Shown: positions 1 to 31,372, numbered from the stretch's first letter. The stretch is DNA of 64,000 nucleotides from Eledone cirrhosa (GCA_964016885.1 OZ024743.1:291896001-291960000), one strand, 5' to 3'. Made by a program: numbers and translations. The notes: generated from the sequence alone by a model not told the origin.

Positions 1-1028
1 CCTTCGTGCTTTGCATTGAAGAATTGGTCAAGGGCCAATTTCGCCGCAAGCACGTCGGTCGCGATGCCTTTGCTGAGCGCCTCATCTAATTTTCTAACTA
101 ATTCTCCCTCTGCTCTATTTTTCTCTATTGCTAAAGTCTTACTAAACCTAATGGACTCTATTCTAATTGCTCTTTTCAGAGCAAACCACCACTTGTTGTT
201 GACGATGGCCCCCGTCAACGCCCGCTTAACTAGTTCGCTAATCCGGTCTCTGTAGGCCTTGCGCGCTGGTAAAGACGCGTTTAACTTCCAGTAGCCGGGT
301 CCTCGTCTATGAAGCCTATCTAAGTCAAGCACACAGATCACGAATTTGTGGTCCGTGTAGCTGACTATCTTGAATTGTGGACAGCCTATGCTAGACCTAT
401 CTATTTCCCTACAAAATACTCTATCTAGATATGATCTGGATGACCCTATGCGATTTGTCCAAGTCCACATTGGTACATTCGGGAAATCCATTCGGTACCT
501 GTCAGACAGTTCAAAACGTCTGAGCAGGTTGGTGAGACTCTTGCACCCTCCTTCCCTATCCACTAATCCCACACAATCCCAGCGTGCATCTAAGATCCCG
601 TTCCAGTCGCCCACTAACACTAAAGAGCGGGACGTTCCAAGAAAGGTCTCCAGACGCCGGAAGAAATCAGGCCGCCCTGCTCCTGTCGGGGCATAGACGG
701 CCACTAACCTGAAAGCTTGCCCGTCTCCGCTGGTCACGTCCAGCACCACCAACTTACCTTCTGGGTCCAGGAAGATGGCCCGTATGGCAAGATCCAAAAC
801 TCTCCGAAAAAGCACAGCAACTCCTCCCCCCGATCCCGGACGGCTGGGAGATGCGTACACATCGTAGCCGCCGAAGATCGGTGCGAAAGCCTGTGCTTCG
901 GAGATTCTGGTCTCGCTGATGGCCACTACATCTATGTTTAGTGACCTGAGGTCGTTGAGCAGGTGGCCCTGCTTCCATGACGACCCCAAGCCACGCGCAT
1001 TTATGCTGCCTATTCTGAGTGAGGTCAT
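1..1028 (-). CDS. ORF2 N-terminus (APE endonuclease), copy A, partial
   Basis: ATG at 1028; MTSLRIGSINARGL...ISETR...GDWN...YLDRVF...YTDHK; aligns to 5607-6627, with 6 extra in-frame nt relative to B. Confidence 0.9.
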   Translation of the reverse strand, partial: MTSLRIGSINARGLGSSWKQGHLLNDLRSLNIDVVAISETRISEAQAFAPIFGGYDVYASPSRPGSGGGVAVLFRRVLDLAIRAIFLDPEGKLVVLDVTSGDGQAFRLVAVYAPTGAGRPDFFRRLETFLGTSRSLVLVGDWNGILDARWDCVGLVDREGGCKSLTNLLRRFELSDRYRMDFPNVPMWTWTNRIGSSRSYLDRVFCREIDRSSIGCPQFKIVSYTDHKFVICVLDLDRLHRRGPGYWKLNASLPARKAYRDRISELVKRALTGAIVNNKWWFALKRAIRIESIRFSKTLAIEKNRAEGELVRKLDEALSKGIATDVLAAKLALDQFFNAKHE

Positions 1029-1062
1029 GTTGAAAAGGAGTGGAAAAGATGGGAAAGACCAC

Positions 1063-2703
1063 TTACCTTACTTCTCGTAGGGGAAGGACGGCTTTTCCAT
1101 CCTTTTCACTGCTTGTGGCCTCCTCAGGAAGGATGTCCTTATAAATCCTCCTGGAGAGTGCTTGTCGGAAGTCTCCGATGTCTTTGGGGAATTTTTGTTT
1201 TAGTGTCATGTACGTTTTCTGTGTGATGCGAGTGATTTGTATGTGTGGAGGTGGTGTGAATTTTGGGGTTTTTGTGTAGTCTTTTTCTGTGATGCTGGTG
1301 TTGTGTTGGATGTAGTGTAATAATTGCCAGTTGTGATAGACGGGGAGTGGAAAATCCTCCACAGCCGTTAGTTTTGGTTGTGGTGTGGTGGATGGTGTAG
1401 GCGCTGGTGCTAGTTCTGAAGCGTTGGGTGGTGGTGGTGTTGGTTTTGCTGGTGGTGGTAGTGGTGTTGGTTTTGCTACTGTTGCTGGGGTTGTTGCTGT
1501 TATAGTTGCTTCTGTTGTTGCTGCTACAGTTGTTGCTGCCATCTCTGCTACTGGTGGTGTTGATGGTTTTGTCACTGGGGTGGGTAGGAGAGGTGGCCTC
1601 AACCTTTTAGCCTGAGGGCAGAAAGCCCTTAGGTGGGTTCCTTCACCACAAACGACACACCTAGGTCTTCTGCCCTCGACAATTACCGTGAGGTGGCTGC
1701 CGTCAGTGAGGTCTATTACCTCTGGGATCTCCTCAATGCTTTTTTGGTCCGCTTGGATCAGGAGCTCCATCCCAGATCCGGACCAGTTTTCCTGCTTTTC
1801 TTTTGCTACTGCTATTATTTTCGTGTTGGCTTCGATGCCGGTGAGGACAGCCGCTATTAGCCAGGGAATTTCGATGGCCGGTGGAACGTGGGTCACCCTG
1901 ATCTTTACGAGTCTCTGGCCACAATAGCTTGGGACGAGTGTGAGGTCGTCACTTTTTAATGGGGCCATGGAGTGTTCTCTAGCCTCCTCTGGTGTTTCAA
2001 AGAACACATCCACGGTTCCATACTTTTGCCCACGTCTGATGTGGGTTTTTCTTGCCCACACATGTCCCAAAGCTTTTTGGATTTGGGACTCGGATGCCCG
2101 TTCCACTCGGCGCGATTTTACATTTATTGTTCTATACGACCCGGTGCACAGGCGCCGATGCTCCATTTTATTAGGTGGGGGGGTGAGGCTGACCCTGTAC
2201 CCATCTTTCTTTACCATTTGTTTGGCATTTTCTAAATCTTCTTGAGTTACCGTGAACGCTTCGAATTGTTTTGCTACGATGGCGAAACTGAGGGTCGGTT
2301 TTATAATGTCATTGTTGTTGTTGTTGCTATCGTTGATATTAATTTTATTTTCAGTTGTGGTGGTGACGTCAGTCTTCTTTGGTGGGGAAGAGTCCATTTT
2401 GCTTGATTTCATTTCGACGTCACGAGTTAATTTATTTTTTTTTTCTTTTGTTTCTGTTGTCGCGGTGGTGGTGGTGGTGGTGGTGGTTGTCGCGGTGGTG
2501 GTGGTGGTGGAGGGTTTAACACCTGCAGTCATTGGTAATGGCGGGAAATGAATGTCTGCCTGAGACAAATTTAAAATATTGCTACTGCTTATATTTTTTT
2601 TTGTGTTGGCAAACGTAGTAACATTTACAATGGTGGTGTCGGTGTGAGGTGTTATTTTGTGAGGAAGGCTTTCAGCTGCTTCGTGCAGAGGGGAATTAGC
2701 CAT
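1063..2703 (-). CDS. ORF1 (Gag-like nucleic-acid-binding protein), copy A, 546 aa
   Basis: Low-complexity N-terminus, central conserved (probably RRM-like) core, CVVCGEGTHLRAFC zinc knuckle, Pro/Thr linker, conserved C-terminal block. Confidence 0.88.
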   Translation of the reverse strand: MANSPLHEAAESLPHKITPHTDTTIVNVTTFANTKKNISSSNILNLSQADIHFPPLPMTAGVKPSTTTTTATTTTTTTTTATTETKEKKNKLTRDVEMKSSKMDSSPPKKTDVTTTTENKININDSNNNNNDIIKPTLSFAIVAKQFEAFTVTQEDLENAKQMVKKDGYRVSLTPPPNKMEHRRLCTGSYRTINVKSRRVERASESQIQKALGHVWARKTHIRRGQKYGTVDVFFETPEEAREHSMAPLKSDDLTLVPSYCGQRLVKIRVTHVPPAIEIPWLIAAVLTGIEANTKIIAVAKEKQENWSGSGMELLIQADQKSIEEIPEVIDLTDGSHLTVIVEGRRPRCVVCGEGTHLRAFCPQAKRLRPPLLPTPVTKPSTPPVAEMAATTVAATTEATITATTPATVAKPTPLPPPAKPTPPPPNASELAPAPTPSTTPQPKLTAVEDFPLPVYHNWQLLHYIQHNTSITEKDYTKTPKFTPPPHIQITRITQKTYMTLKQKFPKDIGDFRQALSRRIYKDILPEEATSSEKDGKAVLPLREVR

Positions 2704-2912
2704 TTTTTTTCAAAGAAATTTTTGGATAATAATAAAAGTTAAAATTTTGGGCACAAGGCCCCAATCTTTTTGGGTGTCCTTTTCGGAAAACAATGTATGT
2801 GTGCTTATAAACAGTTTACAATAAAATTTTCCATAAATGGCAATTTTTAAACAAACGGAAATAACAAACCTTTACGGAGCTCACGATAATACGATTTCCT
2901 ACGTAGGTCGCC

Positions 2913-2951
<39 letters not shown>
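2913..2951. repeat. (AAT)13 tract: tail/target between copies B and A
   Basis: Perfect trinucleotide run 6 nt after the AATAAA of copy B (2958-2963, minus strand). Confidence 0.95.
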
Positions 2952-2953
<2 letters not shown>

Positions 2954-3213
2954 TTTCTTTATTAACCACAAGGGTTTACATAAAGTAGACATTAAGGACA
3001 GTGCAGGACAATGCAGGACGGTACAAATGGGCATTTCTGCGTGTAAAAAAACAAAAACAGAGGATGTAACAAAAATAACAATGAAAATAACAATGAAAAA
3101 TTCCCCAATAGGGGGGAGACTTCGGAGGGACATTTGTGGAGAAAGCCCAGTAAAAAGCCACAATGACCCTGACCACCAAGGCAAGTGCCCTCTCCCAGTT
3201 TTCCACCTTTAGT

Positions 3214-6200
3214 TTACAGATATATACTCAGAGTCGGCCCATTCACTCGGGCCATTCTTGCTTCTCTCACCCATCTTTCAACAAAATGCAGGGAAGAGAG
3301 CACTTCCTTCTCTACTCTGATTTTCCTTTTCAAATGAAATTTGAAAAAGTCAATCAGAGCATCACCGAAGAGGTAAGTGCTCGTCTTCAGCCCTTTCAAA
3401 CGTGTCCACCATACTATCTCTTTCGCCATGGCCACCAGACAGATAAAAACTGCCTGCCCTTCCCGGCTAAAGGAGGAGGGCGGGGCAATCCTCACGATAG
3501 ACTCAGATGATAGCTGGATCCGTCCTAAACGCGACAGCAGGTGTTCGACATAAACCCACAAGTCAGCAATTTTCGGACACTGGACGAGTGCGTGCAGGAC
3601 GGTTTCGTCGCCCTGCGCGCATCTCGGACATGCCCGGCTGACGGCACCTCCATGCCTGTAGAGTTTATCCCGAACTGGCAAGGCTCCTCGGTAGCACTGC
3701 CAGGCCAGAGATTTCTGGAAGTTGTCCATAGGCCCTGGCCCGAAAGTTCTTCCGAAGAGATTGGCTAGTTGATTTTCGTCGACGCCTAGAGTTTCCCCAA
3801 GTACGTCGTCGCTCTTCCCCTCCACTAATCCTCTATAGAACGCCGAGGTGGAGTTTCCACCGATCACATTGCCCGATTGGTCGAGGGCTGTGAGCGCCTG
3901 AAGACATTCCAGTCTCCAGGCGCTCCCTCTCGGTCTTCGCTTGACCCAGGACTGCAGCTCCGTCAAGGAAACGAGCTGGGGAAAAACGCGTCTAGCAAAC
4001 GGCGACCACACCTGATCACCGTCGAGGAAGAGGTGGAGATGTCGTAGCCTGAGCGCGTGCCTGCGCATCATCAGCCACGGCATGCCCAGCCCTCCACGTA
4101 GCGGGTGTTGACAACAGATGGACCGCCTGACCATCGGAGCACGTCCCTTCCACAAAAAGCGAAAGAGCAAACGCTCCAGCGCAGTCAGGCGAGGCTTAGG
4201 ACAAGGTACGACGGTTAGGCGGTAGCAGATGACAGACGCGATGTACGCGTTAGCCACCTCCGCTCGACCTTTCAGGGATAGCTTCCTCTCCGCCCATTTC
4301 TGGGTGAGAGAAGCCACCCTGCTCGTCACCTCGTCCCAGTTTTTGTCCATCTGGAGGTCCGGACCGAACCAGACCCCTAGCAATTTAACCGGTCCGTCCG
4401 TCCAGCGCCCGACGACGCTGTTGGACGGCATGGACCTGCCTCTCCAGGTGCCGAGCTGCAGGCCCACTGACTTTTCCTGGTTGATCATTGCTCCTGTCAC
4501 CGCTTCGTATTCTCTTAGTGTAGTGCCGATCGCCTCGATGTGTTTGACGTTCGACACCACTACGGTGACATCGTCCGCATATGCTGACACGGATCTTCCG
4601 CATCCTAGTTCGCGCGGGACTCCCCTCAACGTCTCCAGTTTGTGCAGTAATGGCTCGAGAGTCAATACGTACAAGAGGGACGAGAGGGGACATCCTTGGC
4701 GGACCGAGCGCATGATGTTGAACGGTTCCGACAGGTGACCGTTCACTCTCACCACAGAGCAGATGTCGCTGTGCATGGCAGCGATCCAGCCTCTGAAGAC
4801 GGGCCCAAAGCCAGCCGCCCTCAGGACTGCCGCTAGGTAACGATGGTCGACCCTATCGAAAGCTTTCGACTGATCTAAATTGATCAAGGACCCACCCGTG
4901 CCAGGTTCCCTAGCTACCCTCTCTACGATGTATCGCATGAGGTGGAGGTTGTCGTGGATGGATCTGTCGGGAATGGCGCATGTCTGCGCCTCTCCCACCA
5001 GACCACCAACGACAAGCGCCAACCTCTTTGCTAGCACCTTGGCCAAAATCTTAAACTCTGTGTTTAGCAGAGTTATGGGCCGGAAATTGTCTATGTTATC
5101 CCCCTTGTTCGGATCCTTTCTCAGCAGTGCCACCGCTCCTCGGCTCACAGAACTGGGAATTCTCCCGTTCTGTTGCCAGTTGCAGTAGACGTCCGCCAAG
5201 AGGCCTCCGAACAAGTCTGGCATCTGTACGTAAAGTTCATAGGGCAGACCATCCAAACCAGGCGATTTACCCCTTGTGCAGCCAGTCATTGCCTCCCGTA
5301 CTTCAGCGGCTGTTATCGGCTTTTCGCAACACCTCGCCTCAGTGGCCGAGAGCCGCGGCAGTCCGTCGAGGTAGACACTAAAGTCCATCCCTCTACCCGG
5401 CCCCCCGCTGCCCCCGAACAGCTGAGCGAAGTGTCGCTGAAAAGCTTCACACATTTGCCCGGGATCGAGTAGCATGCGCCCGTCGTGGTCCACCAAAGAC
5501 CGGATCGTGGCTTTGTTGCCACGACGCGCCTCCGCCACTCGGGCCCATTGAACGGCTTTCGTCCCCTCGTGTCTGAGAGCACGCACCCTAGCTCTGACAA
5601 CGCAGCCTTCGTGCTTTGCATTGAAGAATTGGTCAAGGGCCAATTTCGCCGCAAGCACGTCGGTCGCAATGCCTTTGCTAAGCGCCTCGTCTAATTTTCT
5701 AACTAGTTCTCCCTCTGCTCTATTTTTCTCTATTGCTAAAGCCTTACTAAACCTAATCGATTCTATTCTAATCGCTCTTTTCAGAGCAAACCACCACTTG
5801 TTGTTGACGATGGCCCCCGTCAACGCCCGCTTAACTAGTTCGCTAATCCGGTCTCTGTTGCGCGCTGGTAAGGACGCGTTTAGCTTCCAGTAGCCGGGTC
5901 CTCGTCTATGAAGCCTATCTAAGTCAAGCACACAGATCACGAATTTGTGGTCCGTGTAGCTGACTATCTTGAATTGTGGACAGCCTATGCTAGACCTATC
6001 TATTTCCCTACAAAATACTCTATCTAGATATGATCTGGATGACCCTATGCGGTTTGTCCAAGTCCACATTGGCACATTCGGGAAATCCAATCGGTACCTG
6101 TCAGACAGTTCAAAACGCCTGAGCAGGTTGGTGAGGCTCTTGCACCCTCCACCCCTATCCGCTAATCCCACACAGTCCCAGCGTGCATCTAAGATCCCGT

Positions 6201-6627
6201 TCCAGTCGCCCACTAACACTAAAGAGCGGGACGTTCCAAGAAAGGTCTCCAGACGCCGGAAGAAATCAGGCCGCCCTGCTCCTGTCGGGGCATAGACGGC
6301 CACTAGCCTGAAAGCTTGCCCGTCTCCGCTGGTCACGTCCAGCACCACCAGCTTACCCTCTGGGTCCAGGAAGATGGCCCGTATGGCGAGATCCAAACCT
6401 CTCCGAAAAAGCACAGCAACTCCTCCACCCGATCCAGGACGGCTGGGAGATGCGTACACATCGTAGCCGCCGAAGATCGGTGCGAAGGCCCGTGCTTCGG
6501 AGATTCTGGTCTCGCTGATGGCCACTACATCTATGTTTAGTGACCTGAGGTCGTTGAGCAGGTGACCCTGCTTCCATGACGACCCCAAGCCACGCGCATT
6601 TATGCTGCCTATTCTGAGTGAGGTCAT
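3214..6627 (-). CDS. ORF2: APE endonuclease + reverse transcriptase + C-terminal zinc knuckle, 1137 aa
   Basis: EN motifs NARGL, SETR, GDWN, LDR, TDH; RT motifs KSPGLDG, NFRPITLLN, LDQSKAFDRV, VRQGCPLS, YADD; CPRC..ETVLHALVQC. L1/Tx1-type architecture. Confidence 0.96.
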   Translation of the reverse strand: MTSLRIGSINARGLGSSWKQGHLLNDLRSLNIDVVAISETRISEARAFAPIFGGYDVYASPSRPGSGGGVAVLFRRGLDLAIRAIFLDPEGKLVVLDVTSGDGQAFRLVAVYAPTGAGRPDFFRRLETFLGTSRSLVLVGDWNGILDARWDCVGLADRGGGCKSLTNLLRRFELSDRYRLDFPNVPMWTWTNRIGSSRSYLDRVFCREIDRSSIGCPQFKIVSYTDHKFVICVLDLDRLHRRGPGYWKLNASLPARNRDRISELVKRALTGAIVNNKWWFALKRAIRIESIRFSKALAIEKNRAEGELVRKLDEALSKGIATDVLAAKLALDQFFNAKHEGCVVRARVRALRHEGTKAVQWARVAEARRGNKATIRSLVDHDGRMLLDPGQMCEAFQRHFAQLFGGSGGPGRGMDFSVYLDGLPRLSATEARCCEKPITAAEVREAMTGCTRGKSPGLDGLPYELYVQMPDLFGGLLADVYCNWQQNGRIPSSVSRGAVALLRKDPNKGDNIDNFRPITLLNTEFKILAKVLAKRLALVVGGLVGEAQTCAIPDRSIHDNLHLMRYIVERVAREPGTGGSLINLDQSKAFDRVDHRYLAAVLRAAGFGPVFRGWIAAMHSDICSVVRVNGHLSEPFNIMRSVRQGCPLSSLLYVLTLEPLLHKLETLRGVPRELGCGRSVSAYADDVTVVVSNVKHIEAIGTTLREYEAVTGAMINQEKSVGLQLGTWRGRSMPSNSVVGRWTDGPVKLLGVWFGPDLQMDKNWDEVTSRVASLTQKWAERKLSLKGRAEVANAYIASVICYRLTVVPCPKPRLTALERLLFRFLWKGRAPMVRRSICCQHPLRGGLGMPWLMMRRHALRLRHLHLFLDGDQVWSPFARRVFPQLVSLTELQSWVKRRPRGSAWRLECLQALTALDQSGNVIGGNSTSAFYRGLVEGKSDDVLGETLGVDENQLANLFGRTFGPGPMDNFQKSLAWQCYRGALPVRDKLYRHGGAVSRACPRCAQGDETVLHALVQCPKIADLWVYVEHLLSRLGRIQLSSESIVRIAPPSSFSREGQAVFICLVAMAKEIVWWTRLKGLKTSTYLFGDALIDFFKFHLKRKIRVEKEVLSSLHFVERWVREARMARVNGPTLSIYL

Positions 6628-6662
6628 GTTTAAAATAGAGTGGAAAAGATGGGAAAGACCAC

Positions 6663-8756
6663 TTACCGTACTTTTGGTAGAGGAGGGATGGTTTTTACAT
6701 CCCTTTTCACTTGATCGTCTGGTGAAGGGACCGTTGAATCGTCCCTTCGGCTGGTCGTCGGCTCTTCTAAGAGAATGTCTGAATATACTCTTCGATTGAT
6801 GGTTCCTCCTAGGTCCCTGAAATCACCAACTGCGTTGGGGAATTTCGTTTTAATGTTTGTGTATTGTTTCTGTGCTATTTTTAGCAGTCTTATGTTAGTT
6901 GGCGTTTTGATTGGTGCTGGTATTATGTAGTCCTGTTGTGAAATGTCTGTGTGTTCAATTATGTAAGTCATTAGTTTCTTGTTGTGTGTGTTTATTGCCG
7001 TGCATTTGTTTTTCTGGGGGTGGGGTGTGGTTCTGCTATTTTCTTGTCGTTGTTGCTGGGTGTGTGTGTTTTGTTGTTGTGTTTGCGATGTTGGTGCTTG
7101 TGGTGGTGGTGTTGAAGGTGTTGTTGGCGGTGGGGTTGTCGCCGGTGGTGATGGTGGTGCTGGTGTGGGTGGTGATGGTGTTGGTGGTGTTGCTGCTGTG
7201 GGTCTCTTTGCAGTAGACTTTACCCTTTTCTCATTTCTTTCCTCCCTTTTCAAAGGCGACGATGCGCTGCTTCTGCGTTTGTGCCTTCTTACGACCTTTT
7301 GCCATCCCTCTCCCACCTCACACTCCATGTCTGATTCTGTAAGGTCGGGGAGGGGTACCAGCTCCACTCTTTCACTTGTTGTTGTTGGTGATGTTTGCAC
7401 TGGAGTCTCTGTTGCAGCTGCATTTGGTATTGCTGTTGTTGTTGTTAATATTTCCACTGCTGCTGCTGTCTTTGATTTCCGTGGAGTGGGTATGGGTGCC
7501 ACGGACCTATCGTTCCTGGTTGCCGCTTGTCCTGTTGCTGGTAGCCGTGGAGCCGGATTCGGAAGGAGGGGGGTTTTCTCCTTTCTCAGGGTCTTCTCGT
7601 TGCAGAAGGCCCTGAGGTGAGTCTTCGATCCACAGCGAAAGCATTTCGGGCGTTTGCCCTCAACACTTATGGGCAGTTGAGTGCCGTTATCGAAGTCTAT
7701 CACATCCGGGATAGCTTCGATGCACTCCTGGTTGGTTTGGATTAGCATCTCAATGGAGGAGCCGACCCAATCTTCTCTTACTTTTTTCTGTACTTGCAGT
7801 ACAGTTGTTTTGTCCTCGATTCCGATTAGGACAGACGCGGCCAGCCAAGAAGGGGTCATTCCGGGGGGGACGTGGGTCAGTTTGACCCTCACAATTTTTT
7901 GCCCGCAGTAGGAGGGCACCAACACCATTTCCTCGCTCCTTAGGGTCACTACTGATTGGGCCTTTGCCTCCTGGGGTGTGGCAAAAAGTACGTCTACGGT
8001 GGCATATTTTTTGCCTCGGGTGATGTGCGTTTTCCGCTGCCACACAGACCCCAAGGCTTTTTGTATTTGGGCCTCTGTGGCTCTTTCCACCCTACGGGAT
8101 TTTGTACTTACTGTACGGTACGTGACCGTACAGTGCTCTTGGGTTTTGAAAAATTTTTCCGCTGCCTTGCAGATTGCTCGGTGTCCGTTCTTTGTCACCA
8201 TCTTCTTCGCTTCCTCTAATTCCTCATTTGTTATGAGGATTGTTTCCAAGTTTTTCGCAATACCTGCAAATGAGATTGGTTTTTCTCTGCTGTTGTTGTT
8301 GTCGTCAGAGCTGCTGGTACTTTTGTTGTTGCTGCAGGTACTACGACTACTGCCTCCGCCGCTGTTGCTGTGGTTGTTGTTGGTGTTGCTGCTGCTAATG
8401 CTGTTGTTGTTTATGCTGCTGGTGATGCTGTTGCGGCTGCTACTGTTGTTTTCATTGTCACTGTTGCAGTTGTTATTACGGCTGCTACTGCTATTATTCC
8501 TGACGTCAGACGAATGAACTGGGTTTTCGTATTTCCCGCACACCTGTTTCGTCGCTGTCGTCGTCGTCGTGGAGAAACCTTGCACGCTTTGCACGAGACT
8601 TTTCTTTTCTTTCGTCACTTGCGAAAGAGAAGGGAGGGAGAGAGACACATTTAAAGAAGGGAGGGAGAGAGACAATCTTCTCTCTGCTGTAGTGATGATT
8701 GAGGAAGAAGACGGAATGAGTGGGAGTGACGTATGAAATTTCTTTTTCGTAGCCAT
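6663..8756 (-). CDS. ORF1, copy B (~697 aa from first ATG at 8756)
   Basis: Ser/Asn-rich N-terminus, core homologous to copy A ORF1, CFRCGSKTHLRAFC knuckle, WQKVVRRHKRR basic patch, conserved C-terminal block. Confidence 0.88.
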   Translation of the reverse strand: MATKKKFHTSLPLIPSSSSIITTAERRLSLSLPSLNVSLSLPSLSQVTKEKKSLVQSVQGFSTTTTTATKQVCGKYENPVHSSDVRNNSSSSRNNNCNSDNENNSSSRNSITSSINNNSISSSNTNNNHSNSGGGSSRSTCSNNKSTSSSDDNNNSREKPISFAGIAKNLETILITNEELEEAKKMVTKNGHRAICKAAEKFFKTQEHCTVTYRTVSTKSRRVERATEAQIQKALGSVWQRKTHITRGKKYATVDVLFATPQEAKAQSVVTLRSEEMVLVPSYCGQKIVRVKLTHVPPGMTPSWLAASVLIGIEDKTTVLQVQKKVREDWVGSSIEMLIQTNQECIEAIPDVIDFDNGTQLPISVEGKRPKCFRCGSKTHLRAFCNEKTLRKEKTPLLPNPAPRLPATGQAATRNDRSVAPIPTPRKSKTAAAVEILTTTTAIPNAAATETPVQTSPTTTSERVELVPLPDLTESDMECEVGEGWQKVVRRHKRRSSASSPLKREERNEKRVKSTAKRPTAATPPTPSPPTPAPPSPPATTPPPTTPSTPPPQAPTSQTQQQNTHTQQQRQENSRTTPHPQKNKCTAINTHNKKLMTYIIEHTDISQQDYIIPAPIKTPTNIRLLKIAQKQYTNIKTKFPNAVGDFRDLGGTINRRVYSDILLEEPTTSRRDDSTVPSPDDQVKRDVKTIPPLPKVR

Positions 8757-8972
8757 GTTGTTTTTTTGTTTAAAATGAAATTTTGGGTACAAAACCCCAA
8801 TAACTGGTTATTTAACCCCGAAGGGCCAAATAACGGACAGAAAGACCCCTCTCACGAGGAGGAGGGTGTCTTTATCAACAATTTGGTTCAAGTTTTAAAC
8901 AATTTACAATTGTTTTAACGGTTAAAAATTACTATACCTTACAGAGCCGAGCCTCCGTCAACCATGGCATTC

Positions 8973-8996
8973 AATAATAATAATAATAATAATAAT
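8973..8996. repeat. (AAT)8 tract between copies C and B
   Basis: Perfect run directly after the 3' end (AATAAATGGAATC) of copy C. Confidence 0.95.
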
Positions 8997-9274
8997 GATT
9001 CCATTTATTAGCCAAAAGGGCCGACATGTAGGGGACAATACAAAGACAGGGACAGTGGGGGTTTACAATAAGGTCGAGTAAAAGTGCACAATGGCAAGAC
9101 TAATTTAACAATGAAAATATAAAAATATATAATAAACTATACATAAATATAACAAAATAAATTCCCCGGTAGGGGGCGGACGACCCTGGGGTGATTCGGG
9201 TACCCCACCAATCCTGAACCACCCTGCGCTTCTAGGGCACCCAGGAGAGCACTCCTCTCCTCAAGTTAGCCAGC

Positions 9275-12200
9275 CTATAGGCGCATGGTCAGAGTAGGCC
9301 CATTAACACGAGCCATTCTCGCCACATTCACCCACCTTTTAGCAAATGTACTGGGGGGCAGCACTTCTCTCTCCACCCTCACCCTCCTTTCCAGGTGAAA
9401 CTTGAAGAAGTTGATGAGGGATTGGCCGAAGAGAAAAGTGTCTGTGTTTAGTCCTTTCAACCTGGTCCACCATATAATCTCTTTCGCAACTGCCACAAGA
9501 CAGAGGAAAATGTCCTGCTCTTCCTGACCTAAGGAAGTTGGCGGCTCGATCTTCACTATGGACTCGGCCGATAGCCGGATTCGTTCCACACGCGACAGTA
9601 GCTGTTCGACATAACTACACAAGTCAGTAATGCACGGACATTGGAAAAGTGCGTGCAGAACGGTTTCGTCGTTCTGTGCGCATCTTGGGCAGGTCCGTCT
9701 GACAGCACTTCCGTGCTTGTAGAGTTTATCCCGAACCGGCAGTAACCCCGGCAGCCCTGCCAAGCGAGGGATTTCTGGAAATTGTCCATCGTCCCCGGCT
9801 CAAAAGTCCTCCGGTACAGACTGGTCAGTTCGACTTCGTCGAGGCCCAAAGCTTCTCCGAGTGCGTCATCGCACTTGCCCACCACTAATCCTCTATAGAA
9901 CTCGAGAGTGGAAGTTCCACTGATCGCATTGCCCGCTTGGTAGAGGGCAGTGAGTGCCTGGCAACATTCCAGGTGCCAGTCACCCAGTCTCGGTCTCTTC
10001 TTGACCCAGGACTGCAGCTCAGTCAAAGAAATGAGCTGCGGAAAGGCCCGTCTGATAAATGGCGACCACACCTGTTCACCATTGAGGCAGAATATCTGGA
10101 GATGCCGCAGCTTCAACGCATGTCTGCGCATCATTAGCCACGGCAAGACCAGCCCTCCGCGTAGAGGGTGCTGGCAGCAGATGGACCGCCTCACCAACGG
10201 AACTTTTCCCCTCCACAAGAATTTGAAGAGGAGCCGTTCCAAATTGACGAGGCGCCGACGGGGGCAAGGCACGACGGTTAGGTGGTAGTAGATGACGGAC
10301 GCGATGTACGCATTCGCCATCTCCGCGCGACCTTTCAGTGATAGCTTTCTCCCAGCCCATTTTTGGGTGAGACTGGCTACTCTGCTCGTTATCTCGTCCC
10401 AATTCTTTTCCACCTGGAGGTCTGGTTTAACCAAACCCCGAGCAACTTTACTGGTCCATCCGTCCAGCGCCCCACGACGCTGTTGGACAGAATGGGCTTG
10501 CCTCTCCAGGTTCTGAGCTGCAAGCCCACCGACTTTTCCGGGTTAAGTTTGGCTCCTGTCAACCTTTCATATTCCTTCAATAAGGTGCCGATCCCCTCGA
10601 TTTCTGAGGTGTTCGACACCATCATGGTGATGTCGTCCGCACAAGCCGACACCGCCTTTCCACGTCCCGGTTCGAGCGGGATGCCCTGCAACAGCTCCAG
10701 CTTCTGCAGTAAAGGCTCGACAGTCAATACGTACAGAAGGGAAGAGAGAGGGCACCATTGACGGACCGATCGGGAGAGCCGAAATGGTTCCGAGAGGTGG
10801 CCATTAACCTTGACCACCGAGCGTGTGCCGCTGTGCATTGCAACGATCCAGCTTCTAAAGAGAGGGCCGAAGCCAGCTGCTTTGAGGACAAACTCCAGAT
10901 ACCGATGGTCGACCCTATCGAATGCTTTCGATTGATCTAAATTGATCAGTGCCCCACCGAAGCCAGGTTTACACCCTACCCTCTCTATGATGTATCGCAT
11001 GAGGTGGAGATTGTCGTGTATGGACCTGGTTTGGATTGCGCAAGTTTGCGCCTCCCCAATCTCTTTGCTAACACTTTGGCCAAAATCTTAAACTTTGTGT
11101 TGAGCAGAGTTATGGGCCTGAAGTTGTCTAATGTATCCCTCTTGTTCTCGTCTTTCCTTATCAGCGTCACCACTCCCCTACTCACAGAACTGGGAATACT
11201 CCCATTCTGCTGTCAGTTACAGTAGAGTGCTTCGAGGAGTTCGGAGAACAAGTCTGGCATATTTACGTAAAGCTCGTAGGGCAGGCCATCCAAACCGGGT
11301 GACTTGCGCCTCATGCAGCCGACAAGGGCGTCCTGAATTTCGGCTGAAGTAATCGGCCTTTCGCAGCGCTCAGCGTCGACCGTCGAGATGCGCGGCAAGC
11401 CGTCAAGGTAGGGACTGAAATCCGCTACTCTCTCTGACTCGCCACTCTCCCTGAACAACCGAGCAAAGTGCTGGCGAAAGGCCTCACACATGCGCTTGGA
11501 ATCGCTTATCTCGTGTCCGTCTCGGTCCGCCAAAGACCGAATTGTGGTTTTATTACCACGCTGCGCCTCCGCCACGCGGGCCCATCGAACAGCTTTAGTT
11601 CCCTCGTTTCTCAGCGCACGCGCCTTAGCTCTGACAATGCAACCTTCGTGTTTGGCATTGAAGAAATGGTCTAATGCCATTCTCGCCGCTAGCACGTCAG
11701 TTGCGATGCCACTACAAATAGCCTCGTCTAACTTATCTACCAGCTCCCCCTCCTTTCTATTTTTCTCTAACGCTAGTTCTTTGCTGAACTCTATCGAAGT
11801 TACTCTAATCTCTCTTTTGAGAGCCCCCACCATCTGTTGTTGATGATCCCCCCTGTCAACTTTTGCTTAACTAACTTGTTGACTCGGTCCCTGTAAGCCT
11901 TACGTGCCGGAAATGACATGTTCAGCTTCCAGTAACCCGGTCCTAACCTACGCGTTTTATTTAGGTCGACCGTACAGATCACACATTTGTGATCTGAATA
12001 GGCGACCGTTTTAAAAGGTGGACAGCCCACACTATTTCTATCTATTTTCCTAATGAAGATTCTGTCTATATACGATCTAGATGACCCCATTCGGTTGGTC
12101 CATGTCCATACTGGCACATTGGGGAAATCTAGTCGATACCTGTCAGACAGTTGGAACTGGCTGAGTAGGTGCTTGAGGCTTTTGCACCGCCCGCTCCTAT

Positions 12201-12671
12201 CGGCTACTCCCACACAATCCCAGCGTGCATCTAAGATGCCATTCCAGTCCCCCGCTAACAGTAAAGGGCGAGACGTACCCAGAAAGGTCTCCAGGCGCCT
12301 AAAGAAGTCAGGTCGTCCGGCCCCTGTAGGGGGGTAGACGGCCAGCAGTCTAAAGGCACCACCTTCGCTACTGCTCACATCCAAGTCCACCAACTTACCG
12401 TCCGGGTCCCGGAAGATCGACCATACCTCGAAATCCAGTCCTTTCCTAAACAGCACTGCCACCCCACCCCCCATTCCCGGCCTGCAAACAGATGCGAAGA
12501 TCTGATAGTCGTCGAAAATGGGGGGTAGTGCGCTCGTGTCGGAAATTATGGTCTCTCCTACGGCAATCACATCCATTTCCAGCGACCGGAGGTCGCTGAG
12601 CAGGCGACCCTGCTTCCAGGGTGACCCCCCAGGCCGCGAACATTTAAACTTCCTACTCTTAATATGGCTAT
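9275..12671 (-). pseudogene. ORF2 pseudogene (EN-RT-zinc knuckle), copy C
   Basis: Fragments 11800-12576, 11213-11833, 10985-11185, 10389-11000, 9556-10434, 9275-9763 colinear with B ORF2; YADD reads CADD; presumed start ATG reads ATA at 12671. Confidence 0.92.
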
Positions 12672-12680
12672 ATTGGTAAG

Positions 12681-14655
12681 CTAAGAGAGAGAGAGGGAAG
12701 GTTTACTTACCTCCCGGGTCTTGTGAAGGTCGGGTGGTTCGACCTCCATGGTTGGTGGGGTTTCTTTTGGGAACCTCTTTAAAAGTCTTGATGTGGGTTT
12801 CCAATTCGGGTTTCCCACGCCTTGAGGAAAGCTCTCTCGAATTTCTTTGAAGGAATTGAGTGACATTCGGACCAGAAGCAAATCTTCTGGCACGCAATAT
12901 GTGCTCATTTCAAAAATCTCCCCCTCTGTTTGAATGTCCTCACTTCGCGCTAAGAGTGCCATCAGTTTATCGTTGGCCCTTCTGACAAGCACGAAGTTTT
13001 TAACATTTTGTTGGTGTGGTTTTATTTGTTTTCGTTTTGGTGAAGGTGGTGGCGATGATTTTGGTGGTCTTGTTTCGCGTATGTCTATGTTTGTCGTAGG
13101 TGTGGTGTCTGCAATTTCAGGTATTTGTGTGTTTATTTGTACTTGTGTTTGTTTAGGTTGTTTGCGTTTCGGGGATTCTAGAGGTGGTGTCGATGTTGCT
13201 GATGATGCTGATGTTATTGGGGAAGTGTTTTCGTTAGTGGTGTCTGTATTTTTTGTTGTGTGTGTTTTTGTGTTTTGTTGGGGCTTTTTTTTGTGAGTTT
13301 TCTGTTTTTTTTGCACTTTGGGGTTTTCCTTCATCTTCGCTGCTGGAAGACAAAGGGTCTGTGTCTGTGAGTGTCTCTGTGTCTGTGTGTGCATTTATTT
13401 TGTTTTTGTCTATGTGTATAATTGGGGGGGGGGTGGGAGAGCTTTCTACGTTTTCTCCTTGGATTGGTTTTGGTGTTGGTGTAGATCCGGCTGCTTTTGA
13501 TGTTGGTGTCCGTGTTTTTGTTGATGTTGGTTTTGGTGGTGGTGGTGGTGCAGCTTTCCGTGCTGACACTGGCGTTGGCAACAAAGGAGGTTTGCGACCC
13601 CCTGCATTTTTGCGCTGAGGGCAGAAGGCTTGAAGATGCGTTGCTTCCCCGCAAACGAAGCAGCGTGGCGTTCTTCCGTCAATCATTAGTTGGATTGTTG
13701 TCCCGTCCTGCAGGCGGGAAAAATCTGGGATGTTATTCGTATCCTCCGGTTTCATTTGGAGAAGAATCTCCAAATCCATTCCGGACCAGTCCTCTCTCTC
13801 TGTCCTTTTGATGTCCAGGAGGGTGGTGTCTGTCCCCTCCTCGATTGCGCATCCCAGCAGCCACCATATGTTCATTCCTGGTGGGATGCTGGGAATGCGT
13901 ACCTTCACTGTCCTTTTACCCATATAGGACGGATGCATGATAATGCGTTCCGTTCTGGAGGGGGTCACCGAGTGCTTAATAGCGAGGGCCTCGGTTTTGA
14001 ACAGTACCGAGATGGTACCGAACTGTTTGCCTCTTGCTTTGTACTCTATGTTACTTCCGATGTACTCCAAAGCAGCCTCTACCTCTGCTTGGCTCGCAAG
14101 TTCCACTTTTCGTGTCTGCACCGAAATACATCGAAAGAGCACCGTCCTCCTTTGCATGGCCGCTATTGCCTCGTCCGGGATGGTCAGGTTTGCCCAGGAA
14201 TTCTCCCGTTTAATTAGCCTCCACGCTTTGGCCAACTGTTCGTCTTTATCGCTAATATCAATATCAATATTCAATAAGCGCTTTGTTTTTGCTGCTGCTG
14301 CAGCAAATGTGGTGTTTCTGATGCTCTTATTGTTGTTGTTGTCATTCTTGCTGTTGCCACCGCCATCTTTGTTTACATTGAAGCTGTCGGTGCTATTGTC
14401 GTTATTGCTCTGAGTTGTTGTTGTTGTGGTGGTGGTGGTGGTGGTGGTGTTGGCGGTGGTGGTGATGTCGTTTTCAGATGATACTGCTGCTATGGCAGAA
14501 GGTTGTGATGGTAGCTTTTTAGTTTTGCCTTCACATTCAGTAGAGTGGATGACAGGCATGACTGAGGCCGTCGTAGTCGTGGTGAAATATGCAGTGGCTG
14601 CCTTTAAACTTTTGATCTGAACGTTGTTTACCGTTTCAAGGTCGAAAATTTCCAT
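12681..14655 (-). pseudogene. ORF1 of copy C, frameshifted (13234-14655 plus 12681-13394)
   Basis: CFVCGEATHLQAFC knuckle and KPPLLPTP in the first frame; C-terminal block (..IRESFPQGVG) in the second frame. Confidence 0.82.
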
Positions 14656-14880
14656 AATATTTTCTGGGGTGGGGAAGCGATTTTTTTCGAAGTTTTTAAA
14701 AAATAAATATGATTATTCGGGCTTAAAGCCCGAATATTGAGAGGTATCCCTCTCTTTAAATCAAGATGTGTACCTTAAGTTTCGTTAATGACAAGAAAAG
14801 ATAAAAAAGACACTTTAAAACAGCTTAAAGCTACGAACCTTTTCCCCCGCAGACTTGTCTGTCTTCACACATGTGCGGCC

Positions 14881-14951
<71 letters not shown>
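14881..14951. repeat. (ATA)n tract (71 nt) between copies D and C
   Basis: Perfect run after the 3' end of copy D. Confidence 0.95.
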
Positions 14952-14952
<1 letters not shown>

Positions 14953-15910
14953 TTTTCATTTATTAGCCACAAAGACCGACATGTAGCGGACAATACAAAG
15001 ACAGGGACAGTGGGGGTTTACAATAAGGTCGAGTAAAAGTGCATAATGGCAAGACTAATTTAACAATGAATATATAACATTATAAAATAAACTATGCATA
15101 AATATAACAAAATAAATTCCCCGGTAGGGGGTGGACGACCCTGGGGCGACTTGGGTACCCCACCAATCCTGACACCACCCCCACCCCCTGTGCTTCTAGC
15201 GCACCCAGGGAGAGCACCCCTCTCCTCAAGTTAGCCAGCCTATAGGCGCATGGTCAGTGTAGGCCCATTCACACGAGCCATTCTCGCCACATTCATCCAC
15301 CTTTCAGCAAATGTACTGGGGGGAAGCACTTCTCTCTCAACCCTCACCTTCCTTTCTAGGTGAAACTTCAAGAAGTTGATGAGGGATTGGCCGAAGAGAA
15401 AAGTGTCTGTCCTCAGTCCTTTTAATCTGGGCCACCATATAACCTCTTTCGCAACTGCCACCAGACAGAGGAAAATTCCTGCTCTTTCTGACCTAAGGAA
15501 GGCGGCGGGTCGATCTTCACTATGGACTCAGCCGATAGCCGGACTCTTTCCACACACGACAGTAGCTGTTTGACATAACTACAAAAGTCAGTAATGCACG
15601 GACATTGGACAAGTGCGTGCAGAACGGTTTCGTCGTTCTGTGCGCATCTTGGGTAGGTCCGTCTGACAGCACGTCCGTGCCTGTAGAGTTTATCCCGAAC
15701 CGGCAGTACCCCCCGGTAGCACTGCCAAGCGAGGTATTTCTGGAAATTCTCCATCGTCCCCGGCTCGAAAGTCCTCTGGTATAGACTGGTCAGTTCGACC
15801 TCGTCGAGGCCCAAAGCTTCTCCGAGTGCGTCATCGCACTTGCCCACCACTAAACCTCTATAGAACTCGAGAGTGGAAGTTCCACTGATCACATTGCCCG
15901 CTTGGTAAAG
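14952..15910 (-). mobile_element. 5'-truncated Tx1 copy D (same family as C)
   Basis: Highly similar to 8997-9945; breaks off at GCCCGCTTGGTAAAG next to ATAATAAT. Confidence 0.92.
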
Positions 15911-15918
15911 ATAATAAT

Positions 15919-16016
15919 TGTTTCTACTTTAGGCACAAGGCCAGCAATTAACCAGTGCATTACTGGTACTTTATTTTATCGACCCCGTAAAGATGAAAGG
16001 CAAAGTCAACCTTGGA
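15919..16016 (-). mobile_element. Short SINE-like insertion with 17-bp target-site duplication
   Basis: TTGGTAAAGATAATAAT at 15902-15918 and 16017-16033; the insert reads (minus) GACTTTGCCTTTCATC..GGGGTCGATAAAATAAAGTACCAG..GGCCTTGTGCCTAAAGTAGAAAC, which resembles cephalopod SINE core and tail (from memory). Confidence 0.75.
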
Positions 16017-16033
16017 TTGGTAAAGATAATAAT

Positions 16034-19000
16034 GGTTTCTGCATTGGCCACAACACGAAGAAAAACATTAGAGGCGGCAAGAACAGTACAGGACGATACA
16101 AACTGGGTTTTGGTCATGTAAACAGGTTATAACAATTTGGGTTAGAAATCAAAAGAATTCAAACAACAAAAATTCCCCCAAAAGGGGGAATCTTTGAGGG
16201 TCACTCGTGGCGAAAACCACACGAAAAATTCACGTTAACCCTGACCACCAGGGCAAGCACCCTCTCTCACTTTTCCCACTCCTCAGTCTACAGGTACATA
16301 CTCAGAGCGGGCCCGTTGATGCGGAGCAGACGCGCCACTTTCACCCAACTTTCAACAAACTTACTAGAAGACACCACTTGACTTTCCTCTTCAAGTGAAA
16401 CTTGAAAAAGTTAATAAGGGATTAGCCGAAGAGGAAAGTGTCCGTCTTCAACACTTTCAACCTTTCCCACACACAATCTCTTTCGTCATGGCCACCAGGC
16501 CGATAAAAACTGCCTGCCCTTCCTCCTCTTTAAAGGAGGATGGTGGGGCTATCTTCACAATGGAATCAGTCGATAACAGGATCTATCCTACATGCGACAC
16601 CAGCTGTTCGACATAGCCTCACAAGTCAGCAACACTCGGGCACTGAACGAGTGCGTGCAGGACGGTTTCGTCGCCCCGCGCGCATCTCGGACTGAGTCGT
16701 CTGACACTCCGTGCCTGTAGAGCTTATCCCGAACCGGCAACGCTCCCCGGTAGCACTGCAAGGCCAGGGATTTATGGAAGTTGTCCATAGGCCCCGGTCT
16801 GAAAGTTCTCTCGAAGAGAGCGAACTACTGTTCGTCTTCGACGCCCGGGGTCTCCTCGAGAACGTCGTCGCTCTTTCCCTCCACTAGCCCTCTATAGAAC
16901 GCAGAATTGGATGTTCCACCGATAATAGTGCCCAGCTGGTAGAGGTTGGTGAGACATTCCAGCTTCCAAGCGCTATCCGTCGGGCTTTTCCTGATCCAGG
17001 ACTGCAGATCCATCAAGGAGATGAGCTGGGGAAAAGTGCCTCTGGCAAACGGCGACCACACCTGTTCACCGTCAAGAAAACACCAGAGATGTCGCAGCTC
17101 GGCGCATTTTTGCGCATCATCAGCCACGGCATGCCAAGTCCTACACGCAACGGGTGTTGACAGCAAATGGATCGTCTGAACATGGGAGCACGTCCCCTCC
17201 ACAAAAAGCGGAAGAGAAGGCGGTCCATTTTGCTCAGAGTTGGGCGGGAGCAAGGTACGACGGTCAGGCGGTAGCAGATGACGGAGGCGATGTACGCATT
17301 CGCCACCTCCGCATTTGGACAGCATGGACTTGCCTCTCCAGGTGCCGAGTTGCAAGCCCACCAACCTTTCCTGGTTTATCTTTGCTCCTGTCAGCGCTTC
17401 GTATTCCTTGAGAGCGGTGCCGAGCATCTGGACGTGTTTTGGGCTCGACACCACCACGATGACGTCGTCGGCGTTAGCTGAAACGGATCTCCCGCATCCC
17501 AATTCGCGTGGGACACCCCCCATCGTCTCCTATTTCTGCAGTAACGGCTCCAGGGCCAGTACGTACAAGAGGGACGAGAGGGGGCAACCCTGGCGGGCGA
17601 GAGCATGATGCTGAAAGGCTCACAATCGAGCAGATGTCGCTTTGCTAAAAACGGGCCCGAAGCCGGCCGCCTCGAGGACCACAGTTAGGTACCGATGGTC
17701 GAACCTATCAAATGCTTTAGATTGATCCAAGTTAATCAGGGTCCCACCAATGCCAGGATCCTTAACCACCCTCTTAATGATGTATCACAGGAGATGGAGG
17801 TTGTCGTGGATGGATCTGTCCAGAATGGCGCCTCTCCAACCAGATAACCGACGACAAGCGTCAATCCCTTTGCTAACACCTTGGCTATAATCTTAAACTC
17901 TGCTTTTAGCAGAGTTATGGGCCTGAAGCTGTCTATAACGTCCCCCTTGTTCGCGTCTTTTCTCAGCAGCGCCACCGCTCGCCGGCTCACAAAACTGGTA
18001 ATGCTCCCGTTCTGCTGCCAATTGCAGTGGAAATCTGCCAAGAGGTCGCCTAACAAGTCTGGCATATACTCATAAGGCTCGTAGGGCAGACCATCCAAAC
18101 ATTGCGATTTACCGCTTCGTGCAGTCAGACATCGGTGCCCGTATTTCACCTGCTGTTATAGGCTTTTCTCTACACTTCGCTACGGTCGTCGAGAACCGCG
18201 GCAGTCCATCGAGGTATGCACCGAAGTCCATACTCCTATCCGGCCCACAGCCAATCCCGAACAATTGAGCAAAGTGCTGTTGAAAAGCCGTACACTTCTG
18301 CTCGGTTTCGAGCAGCATGCGCCCGTTTTGATCAGGCAAAGACCGTATTGTGGACTTGTTGCCACGTCGTGCCTCCTCCACCCGGGCCCATTGAACGGCT
18401 TTCGTCCTCTCGTGTCTTGGAGCACGCACACTGACAACGCAGCCTTCATGCTTTGCGTAGAAGAATTGGGCGAGTGCCAATCTCGCCGCAAACACGTCGG
18501 TTGCGATGCCTGTCCTAAACGCCTCTTCCAGCTTTCTAACTAAGTCTCGCTCTACTCTATTTTCATCTATCTCTACTCCTTTGCTAAACCTTATCGATTC
18601 TACTTTAATAGCTTTTTTCAGGGTAAACCACCACCTGTTGTTGACGATCGCACCCGTCTATGAACGCTTAATTAATTCGCTAATCCGGTCTCTGTAGGCT
18701 TTGTGCGCCGGGAAGGACGTGTTCGCCCGTTGGGGCGAAGATGGCTACTAGCCTGAAAGCATTGCCTTTGCTGCCGGTGACGTCCAGCTCGACGGACTTA
18801 CCTTCTGGGTTCAGGAAGATCCAAGCCTCGCCGAAAAACACGGCAACTCCTCCCCCCGAACCTTGACGGCTGGGCGATTTGTATACATCGTAGCCGCCGA
18901 AGATCGGTGCGAAGGCTCGTGCTTCGGAGATTTTGTCTCGCTGATGGTCACCATATCTATATTTAGTGACCTGAGGTCGTTGAGCAGATGACCCTGATTT

Positions 19001-21247: not shown

Positions 21248-21272
21248 ATAATAATAATAATAATAATAATAA

Positions 21273-26020: not shown

Positions 26021-26050
<30 letters not shown>

Positions 26051-26056
<6 letters not shown>

Positions 26057-26456
26057 AAAGAATGGAGGTGTAACACACAAGTTATTATATATTGGTAAAC
26101 GGAATAGAAAATGCTGACAAATTGTTCACAGTTGAAAAATGGTTTAATTAGGAATAAAAGAGTATTAGTGATTGTATGGGTTAGTATTCAGTTGTGGTTT
26201 TAAGTTTTTAAGTTTTTACCGGTTGCGCATTTCTAAATGCTTTTCAAAAATAATTTTGAGATAGAGTGTCCGTGCTGTTTGCTCTGATCTGATTAGTTTT
26301 GGGAATTCTACCTGTTTTTATGTTAAAAAAATGGCTCCAGCGTTATTTTTGTGTTGTAAAAATGCTTGTGGTCAAAACAATTTTGATTGGTCGGTAGAGG
26401 TCATGTGAATGTAAAAAGTTGATTTTGCGCCAAGACTGTTTTTATGTTAAAATGTT
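26051..26456 (-). repeat. 3' pseudo-LTR of the PLE
   Basis: Matches 30866-31270; I saw only one substitution (AATGGAGG vs AATAGAGG). Confidence 0.9.
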
Positions 26457-26571
26457 AGAAAAGTGGCTCCAGCAAAGATTATGGTCAAAACAATTTTGAT
26501 TGGTCGGTAGAGGTCATGTGGATAAAAAATTGGTTTTGCGCCAAGATTGAGAAATGACTCTTTCACAACAA

Positions 26572-26617
<46 letters not shown>

Positions 26618-27021
26618 TAGTAGTAGTAAGGTATTCGATGCTGCGACAATAGCCACCAGCGATGTGTGTCAAATGGCTATTAAGATAAGTGTGTGTGTGT
26701 GTGTGTGTGTGTGTGCGTACATACACACAGCAGAGTCATTCGAAGGTCAAAAGATATTTTTCAGCTTTTGTCTTATACGGAGAAGTGCGCGTGTGTGTGT
26801 GTGTGTGTGTATAAGTCTCTTTGTATGTTGATGTACGCGTGTGTATGTGTCTGTGTATATATGTGTGTGTGTGTGTGTGTGCGTGTGTGGGTGGACCAGT
26901 ATTTTTTTCCCCCCCTGGTAAAATGGTGTACATTATTCGATTTTTTCAGTAAAATCGGTTCTCTTAATAGAACATCAACAATCTTAACAATAAAAGGTGT
27001 GAAATGATATTCACTATATAC

Positions 27022-30839: not shown

Positions 30840-30865
30840 TTTCTGTATCTCGTGTGAGGATATGA

Positions 30866-31270
30866 TAGTTAAAAGAATAGAGGTGTAACACACAAGTTAT
30901 TATATATTGGTAAACGGAATAGAAAATGCTGACAAATTGTTCACAGTTGAAAAATGGTTTAATTAGGAATAAAAGAGTATTAGTGATTGTATGGGTTAGT
31001 ATTCAGTTGTGGTTTTAAGTTTTTAAGTTTTTACCGGTTGCGCATTTCTAAATGCTTTTCAAAAATAATTTTGAGATAGAGTGTCCGTGCTGTTTGCTCT
31101 GATCTGATTAGTTTTGGGAATTCTACCTGTTTTTATGTTAAAAAAATGGCTCCAGCGTTATTTTTGTGTTGTAAAAATGCTTGTGGTCAAAACAATTTTG
31201 ATTGGTCGGTAGAGGTCATGTGAATGTAAAAAGTTGATTTTGCGCCAAGACTGTTTTTATGTTAAAATGT
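30866..31270 (-). repeat. 5' pseudo-LTR of the PLE
   Basis: Direct repeat of 26051-26456. Confidence 0.9.

Positions 31271-31304: not shown

Positions 31305-31372
<68 letters not shown>

Follow-up and report, generated by a model that had tools for sequence, protein, structure and literature searches.

Results and Discussion

The 64,000-nucleotide stretch of the Eledone cirrhosa genome analyzed here (GCA_964016885.1 OZ024743.1:291896001-291960000, hereafter the window) opens with an array of long interspersed nuclear elements (LINEs), in which two neighboring copies, A and B, combine almost the same second open reading frame (ORF2) with strongly divergent first open reading frames (ORF1). A and B are two abundant LINE families, and the ORF1/ORF2 swap between them is real: family B is a directional hybrid, with the promoter and ORF1 front of a third family, P, and the ORF1 tail, inter-ORF spacer, ORF2, and 3' untranslated region (3'UTR) of A. 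P sequence ends exactly at P's consensus splice donor, AAG|GTAAGT, and A sequence begins right after a CAG. Based on this arrangement, we lean, with reservations discussed below, toward the reading that B was made by way of the donor, its best account being one splice across a P-to-A read-through RNA that would have founded the family.

Shared ORF2 and Divergent ORF1 in Families A and B

Bases 1-21,250 of the window form a head-to-tail LINE array on the minus strand, with (ATT)n between elements (Table 1). Copy B (2953-8972) is whole with both reading frames open, and copy A is cut off by the window start, its remainder being found in locus L061. Alignment of 1-1066 with 5606-6666 gives 1029 identical columns out of 1067 (96.4%), with 31 substitutions, one 6-bp indel, and one 1-bp indel. 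This is close to the roughly 97%, 30 substitutions, and 6-bp indel given in a preliminary description of this DNA, which differed in its start point and lacked the 1-bp indel. Over ORF2 and the 3'UTR, with neighboring DNA included, A and B are 95.6% identical across 3.7 kb, whereas their ORF1 proteins can be aligned only in the core (53% over 225 aa) and in a C-terminal block (41% over 86 aa), and their 5'UTRs have only two short matches in common, of 24 and 18 nt. The contrast between the two halves of the elements, and the dissimilarity of the 5'UTRs, are thus as first described, although the ORF1 cores, held to be alignable only as protein, do retain a weak DNA match (65% over 525 nt).

The ORF1 lengths reported earlier, 546 and 697 aa, are both correct, but the former is partly an accident of the window copy, which carries an in-frame deletion of ~340 nt near 1330 that is missing from all 29 other A copies compared, and whose junction was seen, among the fetched loci, only in the window and its duplicate L001; an intact A ORF1 has ~665 aa (L067). 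Identity had also been described as lost within ~15 nt beyond the GTAAGT motif. In fact, the shared DNA extends 44 nt past GTAAGT into ORF1, to 1110/6711, and therefore the seam must lie within the last 15 codons of ORF1. We note that young A and young B copies differ from each other at 8 of the 42 sites of this shared tail (1067-1108 vs 6667-6709), which is identical in old copies, and that the tail diverges faster than ORF2.

Both combinations occur in high copy number, with 4,260 exact genome matches to a 28-mer of the shared A/B junction and 2,362 to a 20-mer of the B seam, and with 17 A and 13 B copies among the first 30 junction matches. The B seam further lies within single contigs of two other runs, X1 (possibly the source of this DNA) and X6, as does the A junction in X6 contigs. 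The probability that copy A is an assembly join or a one-off chimera, which the preliminary description had raised against itself, is in light of these counts and contigs negligible. The tandem setting that it mentioned is common: across all fetched loci, 66 of 137 5' ends adjoin the 3' end of another element, in mixed head-to-tail arrays. The 5' ends are preceded by (ATT)n in 136 of 141 distinct occurrences. Since the founding of B, A and B have expanded alongside each other, inserting into (ATT)n tracts that include each other's tails.

Family P and the Direction of the Swap

Of 84 junction-centered pieces, 60 have an unbroken ORF2, and an initial ORF2 tree of these full-length copies shows young A copies as a clade, B copies as a ladder, and an old base that is not resolved, along with L116 and L139 as single recombinants. 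When sister family E and outgroup C are included, the ORF1 tree is (C,(A,(B,E))) and the ORF2 tree is (C,(E,(A,B))). Family E had itself been considered as a third ORF1 on the same ORF2, as suggested by the endonuclease alone, but a full-length identity of ~85% ruled this out. As the end of B's ORF1 matches that of E up to E's GTAAGT, we searched for B's ORF1 end followed by a base other than T, obtaining 88 matches. Of the 30 viewed, 23 belong to family P, 6 are B copies with a point change, and 1 is an E copy. At the P loci, B's ORF1 end is followed by GTAAGT and by an ORF2 that is ~88% like that of E and ~82% like that of A/B, and full P copies carry B's 5' end, a B-type 5'UTR and ORF1 (about 85-90% identical to B), and an E-lineage ORF2.

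The final trees comprise 44 rows, including those 11 of the 20 P copies whose core is whole and excluding the gappy L217, L218, and L151, with the ORF2 tree built on the first 2 kb of ORF2. In the ORF1 tree, B and P are joined with support of 100/100 and A+B is rejected (p-AU 1.5e-4); in the ORF2 tree, A and B are joined (SH 100) and B+P is rejected (p-AU 5e-9). The separate ORF1 and ORF2 trees that had been proposed as a check are therefore incongruent, and a whole promoter and ORF1 cassette has indeed been exchanged, although not between A and B as originally supposed, but as a P front on an A back. Only B holds a 41-42-nt end unit twice, first in P's version and then in A's, and the tips of P copies are longer than those of B copies, from which it follows that B is the derived family. 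Within B+P, the ORF1 tree is rooted among young B copies, a position most likely due to the long stem.

We note that P is itself recombinant: the first ~300 nt of its ORF2 are ~80% identical to young E and the sequence thereafter is ~95% identical (L357-L376, ORF2 nt 1-400), with P/E switch points that are in register and differ between P copies. The P-type ORF1 cassette has therefore moved at least twice, once without any donor. Single back-recombinants are also present, namely L116 (B ORF1, young-A ORF2), L139 (A ORF1, B ORF2), and L370 (a P copy with B-like ORF1).

The preliminary description had further suggested that tandem arrays favor repeated exchange of promoter and ORF1 cassettes at the inter-ORF junction. 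This model could draw on the 4 changes that the A/B labels require on the ORF2 tree, on synonymous divergence within ORF1-A or ORF1-B (up to 0.2) that exceeds the A-B ORF2 distance (0.08), and on the presence of a P-type cassette on two ORF2 lineages. However, every B-type seam seen lies at one base, and the additional label changes come down to the single copies L116 and L139 and the unresolved old base. In addition, branch lengths show ORF1 evolving ~3x faster than ORF2 in non-hybrid pairs too, which accounts for the deep ORF1 divergence. Recurrent exchange is thus very improbable and many independent A-B swaps are not needed; the data are consistent with a single founding event and, besides it, occasional single-copy recombinants (2 of 60 full copies).

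The Seam at the Donor Motif of P

The sequences around the seam are CAAG|GTAAGT for P, GCAG|TGAAAAG for A, and CAAG|TGAAAAG for B. The join falls at window position 6710|6709 (A's equivalent site being 1109|1108), and thus not at the GTAAGT of A and B, where the breakpoint had been placed, but 43 nt upstream of it, at the donor of P. The AG at 6711-6710 fits both parents, giving a 2-nt microhomology. In the oldest B copies (L309, L324, and L327), the exact join is already in place, with a tail of the old-A type that still lacks the G gained later. Perfect MAG|GTRAGT sites occur only twice in the 6 kb of P, and the seam is one of them, while none of the 143 other distinct junctions in the fetched loci (some of which are mere switches in family assignment) has both GTRAG and AG. 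The join is also out of register despite parental homology at this point, duplicating the 41-42-nt unit, in contrast to the in-register P/E switches. Finally, at 3 of 20 loci the 5' end of an A copy follows directly on P, and in one of these, L376, the A copy has the CAG and the old tail, at a donor-to-CAG distance of 5.7 kb. All five families (A, B, E, P, and C) retain the donor motif, even though their ORF1 stop frames differ.

Several further features of these motifs were observed. In A, E, P, and C, a CAG precedes the donor by 41-42 nt (window 1111-1109 and 6753-6751), in a micro-exon-like arrangement without a pyrimidine tract; this CAG may be only a kept serine codon. The A, E, and P references have another perfect donor 9-mer ~310 nt downstream of the first, within endonuclease coding sequence (window 756-764 in A, with the B counterpart at 6356-6364; minus strand), and in the B reference copy neither of the two sites is perfect. 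A P/E crossover at this second donor was considered and rejected, since P-type sites continue beyond it and the switch points vary by copy. The L061:1177 region holds the one occurrence seen of yet another family, whose junction, CAG|GTAGTT, is different. We also considered a mini-intron from the donor to a CAG at ORF2 codon 4-5, which would fuse ORF1 to ORF2: this is in frame in A and B but not in P, E, or C, and no precise intron-less copy was found genome-wide, only one imprecise deletion (L171). The long open frames with ORF1 in L202 and L203 reflect a simple-repeat extension and a deletion across a tandem, and are not ORF1-ORF2 fusions.

Proposed Splicing across a P-to-A Transcript and Its Alternatives

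If B was founded by splicing, transcription of P would have continued past the weak end of the element into an A copy located immediately downstream, and the transcript would have been spliced from P's donor to the CAG near the end of A's ORF1, removing an intron of ~5.7 kb in the L376 layout. The product would have comprised P's ORF1, given a short new tail, and A's ORF2 together with the spacer and 3' end native to it, and retrotransposition of this RNA would then have founded B. In a variant that also needs the donor, A's reverse transcriptase would have jumped onto the free end of the cut P exon. Such a hybrid was presumably functional because ORF2 retains its own spacer and 3' end, with the ORF1 (an RNA chaperone) and promoter being interchangeable.

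A number of observations weigh against this reading. The acceptor is poor, with 45% pyrimidines in the 20 nt before the CAG and further AGs just upstream. A 2-nt microhomology is the commonest junction class in these elements (41 of 144), and thus the AG overlap alone is no evidence. The event is single, and the chance of hitting the donor in a permissive zone of ~115 nt is, by a post hoc estimate, ~3/115. No second donor-joined copy was found among 30 viewed of 71 A/B exon ends, none among all 22 of 22 E exon ends, and none but B itself among 30 viewed of 35 A-tail starts, using search patterns that miss joins whose next base is G. The internal deletions of these elements are not splice-like (GT-AG in 1 of 57, vs 0.7 expected), splice-free in-register recombination is frequent in the group (P, L116, and L139), and one copy, L289, reads CAAGTAAGTGAAAAG at the seam, resembling a two-step intermediate, yet with a later-B tail. 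Contigs of four runs of unknown kind contain no joint at the donor within 6300-6900, which carries no weight either way. Separately, we observed a near-splice in a B-type copy (L244:2690-2750), where a 1.7-kb deletion runs from 2 nt inside the donor to after an ORF2 CAG, with the GT kept.

In one alternative, the seam would have arisen by a chance template switch or 5'-truncated insertion, with A's cDNA stopping 42 nt before the donor and being completed on P RNA, or on upstream genomic P, at the 2-nt AG match. Selection would then have kept the product because both ORFs and A's spacer were whole, and the position at the donor would be coincidental. Microhomologies of 1-3 nt at 103 of 144 ordinary junctions, the frequency of non-splice deletions and chimeras, and the weak acceptor are all in line with such an origin, as is the origin of mouse L1 families (PMC3600994). 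What a chance switch leaves unexplained is the exact base, which it would hit in about 1-3% of cases. Moreover, an in-register option existed, both in the 41-42-nt unit and in 3.7 kb of 82% identical ORF2, and it was such switching that made P. We regard this alternative as less probable than a donor-made seam.

Template switching could also draw on the predicted pairing of the spacer. Base pairing is predicted between the inter-ORF tract including the donor (1029-1066) and the RNA surrounding the ORF2 stop (3180-3230), 3.4 kb away, at about -37 to -40 kcal/mol in A and B, and the latter region is the spacer's best predicted partner in A, B, C, and P, but not in the E copy tested. Predicted pairing to A's ORF2 end is -40 kcal/mol for the A spacer vs -29 kcal/mol for the P spacer, a difference that is biased as the windows were chosen on the cognate pair. 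The better pairing of A's spacer would confine viable seams to positions upstream of it, and may thus explain why the seam lies there, but not its exact base.

Alternatively, B may have arisen in two steps, through a switch at longer matches near the seam (AGTGA or CAAG, both common to P and A) followed by loss of 3-5 nt. L289 retains TAAG at the seam, and A copy L320 has lost the CAG triplet, so that such slips do happen. However, P's GTAAG kept before an A-type continuation (P exon end + GTAAGTGA + purine) has 0 exact matches genome-wide, and a C follows P's exon end in just 2 of the 88 matches (neither of them among those viewed). As the exact join is already present in the oldest B copies, and L289 has a later-B tail, a two-step origin appears unlikely.

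Taking these alternatives into account, splicing remains our preferred reading for the founding of B. More tentatively, the conserved donor at the end of ORF1 could be a working splice site and a swap point in head-to-tail arrays, where splicing between neighbors would place the promoter and ORF1 of one family on the ORF2 of another and be able to found fully autonomous LINE families of thousands of copies, in which case B would be its genomic fossil and the first sign of donor use.

Element Classification and Other Features of the Window

The features of the array are listed in Table 1. The elements are L1/Tx1-group LINEs by ORF2 domain order and closest solved structure: ORF2 matches PF03372, PF00078, and PF13966 (an N-terminal apurinic/apyrimidinic endonuclease (APE), a reverse transcriptase (RT), and a C-terminal zinc-binding domain), and its best solved-structure match is human L1 ORF2p (E 3e-52), compared to 1e-21 for R2. 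A putative Tx1 label is drawn from architecture and microsatellite targeting. ORF1 is predicted to be of type I, with two RRM-like domains directly before a CCHC knuckle. The four ligands of this knuckle (Cx2Cx4Hx4C) are invariant in 15 rows, and the core model (pLDDT 83) matches tandem-RRM proteins with E 6e-4, at a TM score of only 0.35. A mammalian-type L1 ORF1 (coiled-coil/RRM/CTD, Transposase_22) gave no Pfam hit, and the tail is (ATT)n rather than poly(A). Protein searches returned 1 weak ORF1 match and 5 nameless ORF2 matches. In distant metagenome relatives (22-42% ORF2 identity), GTRAG occurs <=120 nt before ORF2 in 4 of 38 cases, the same as in the control (4 of 38), and thus the donor is not general.

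Table 1. Features of the LINE Array in the Window
Feature	Position	Strand	Remarks
Copy A ORF2, 5' part	1..1028	-	ATG at 1028; endonuclease domain; extends past window start
Copy A inter-ORF	1029..1066	-	GTAAGT donor motif 1066-1061 overlapping ORF1 stop 1065-1063, then pyrimidine tract
Family-A 42-nt ORF1 tail, inherited by B	1067..1108	-	preceded by CAG 1111-1109, an acceptor-like site
ORF1-A	1063..2703	-	546 aa in window copy; core homologous to ORF1-B; CCHC knuckle
5'UTR of A	2704..2912	-	5' end at 2912; same 5' motif after (ATT)n in 56/60 occurrences
(ATT)n, tail of B and target of A; head-to-tail spacer	2913..2952	-	from sequence
3'UTR of B	2953..3213	-	AATAAA immediately ahead of tail
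ORF2 of B	3214..6627	-	1137 aa, intact; APE endonuclease, reverse transcriptase, zf-RVT; A-lineage origin
Inter-ORF of B, A-derived	6628..6666	-	GTAAGT 6666-6661; ORF1 stop 6665-6663
A-derived 43-nt unit in B	6667..6709	-	42 nt plus one later-gained G; frame differs from A's
Seam	6709..6710	-	P sequence up to 6710 (GTAAGT next in P); A sequence from 6709 (CAG before in A)
P-derived part of ORF1-B	6710..8756	-	697 aa in total; predicted two RRM-like domains and CCHC knuckle, low-complexity flanks
5'UTR of B	8757..8972	-	5' end same as family P
Rest of array	8973..21250	-	three decayed/truncated copies, families C and E
Decayed copy, outgroup family C	about 8998-14881	-	
Truncated C-like copy	about 14950-15910	-	
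Decayed family-E copy	about 16070-21250	-	

Beyond the array, the window contains a Penelope-like element (27244-30896, minus strand) with an intact 784-aa frame encoding RT and GIY-YIG, preceded by a 455-aa frame, and with terminal pieces in direct and inverted orientation at 26046-26651 and 30860-31858, as well as a decayed relative at 56672-58576. A 650-aa RT-containing frame at 34905-36857 (plus strand) belongs to a different non-LTR element. The regions 43074-44543 and 60568-62316 hold a 552-nt tandem repeat and long inverted repeats, with a hairpin-like arrangement at 60568-61676 / 61749-62091.

Comparison to Known Systems

The closest precedents for the outcome are the mouse families L1MdTf and L1MdGf, which join the 5'UTR and ORF1 of one lineage to the ORF2 of another (PMC3600994). 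As here, families with non-homologous promoters coexist, and a younger 3' end is combined with an older 5' end. The mouse breakpoints, however, lie inside ORF2, between close relatives, and are ascribed to DNA or RNA recombination or strand switching, whereas in B the ORF1 cores are 53% identical and the seam is out of register, on a splice donor. ORF1 also moves between ORF2 lineages in the shuffling described for CR1/L2/Jockey elements (PMC4120745), which include type I ORF1s (RRM + CCHC) as here, although there it is inferred over deep time without a seam, while here both parents and the seam survive.

The closest precedent for the proposed route is SVA_F1, which acquired MAST2 sequence by splicing (PMC3287187), such that a founding splice gave a retrotransposon subfamily a new 5' end, as proposed for B. 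SVA_F1 is non-autonomous, with a host-gene donor and at least 84 copies; B, in contrast, unites two autonomous LINEs through the transfer of an entire ORF1 and has >2,300 copies, with splicing being only inferred. B's 5' partner ends at a consensus donor (AAG|GTAAGT), as expected of a splice-born element of the SVA_F1 type, and its 3' partner has a CAG, with a weak pyrimidine tract (45%). Similarly, 6 of 17 mRNA/L1 chimeras end at donors (bioRxiv 2025.02.02.635956), and both these and RAP1GDS1-L1PA2 resemble B in that the 5' piece ends exactly at the donor, which has been proposed as a route to new L1 promoters. Their acceptor is sometimes weak or absent. Unlike B, they are single or few insertions with host exons, none of which founded a family in the parts of that study covered here. 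SpIREs of human L1 likewise arise from spliced element RNA copied back into the genome, as would B, but they delete part of a single element and are for the most part dead on arrival (PMC5860796), whereas B would be a splice between two elements that keeps everything needed; that B is itself a SpIRE is ruled out by its two parents, its >2,300 copies, and the open state of both ORFs in the window. In an incomplete search of the literature, we came across no autonomous LINE family attributed to splicing between two separate elements. With respect to targeting, the Tx1-clade elements Kibi and Koshi likewise insert into simple repeats, (TC)n and (TTC)n, respectively (PMC4494074), the target here being (ATT)n, and they also share the APE-RT ORF2 that is closest to L1 among solved structures.

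Conclusions

How a LINE can come to have a new promoter and a new ORF1 with no intermediate stage is still a matter of debate, in which recombination, template switching, and splicing have all been proposed. In E. cirrhosa, the parents, the oldest hybrid copies, the tandem layout, and a seam at base resolution survive in one genome, and the splice route is therefore directly testable. If the splice origin does not hold, family B is still a clean and deep example of ORF1 module shuffling; if it does, splicing would yield new autonomous families, and thus more than dead copies.

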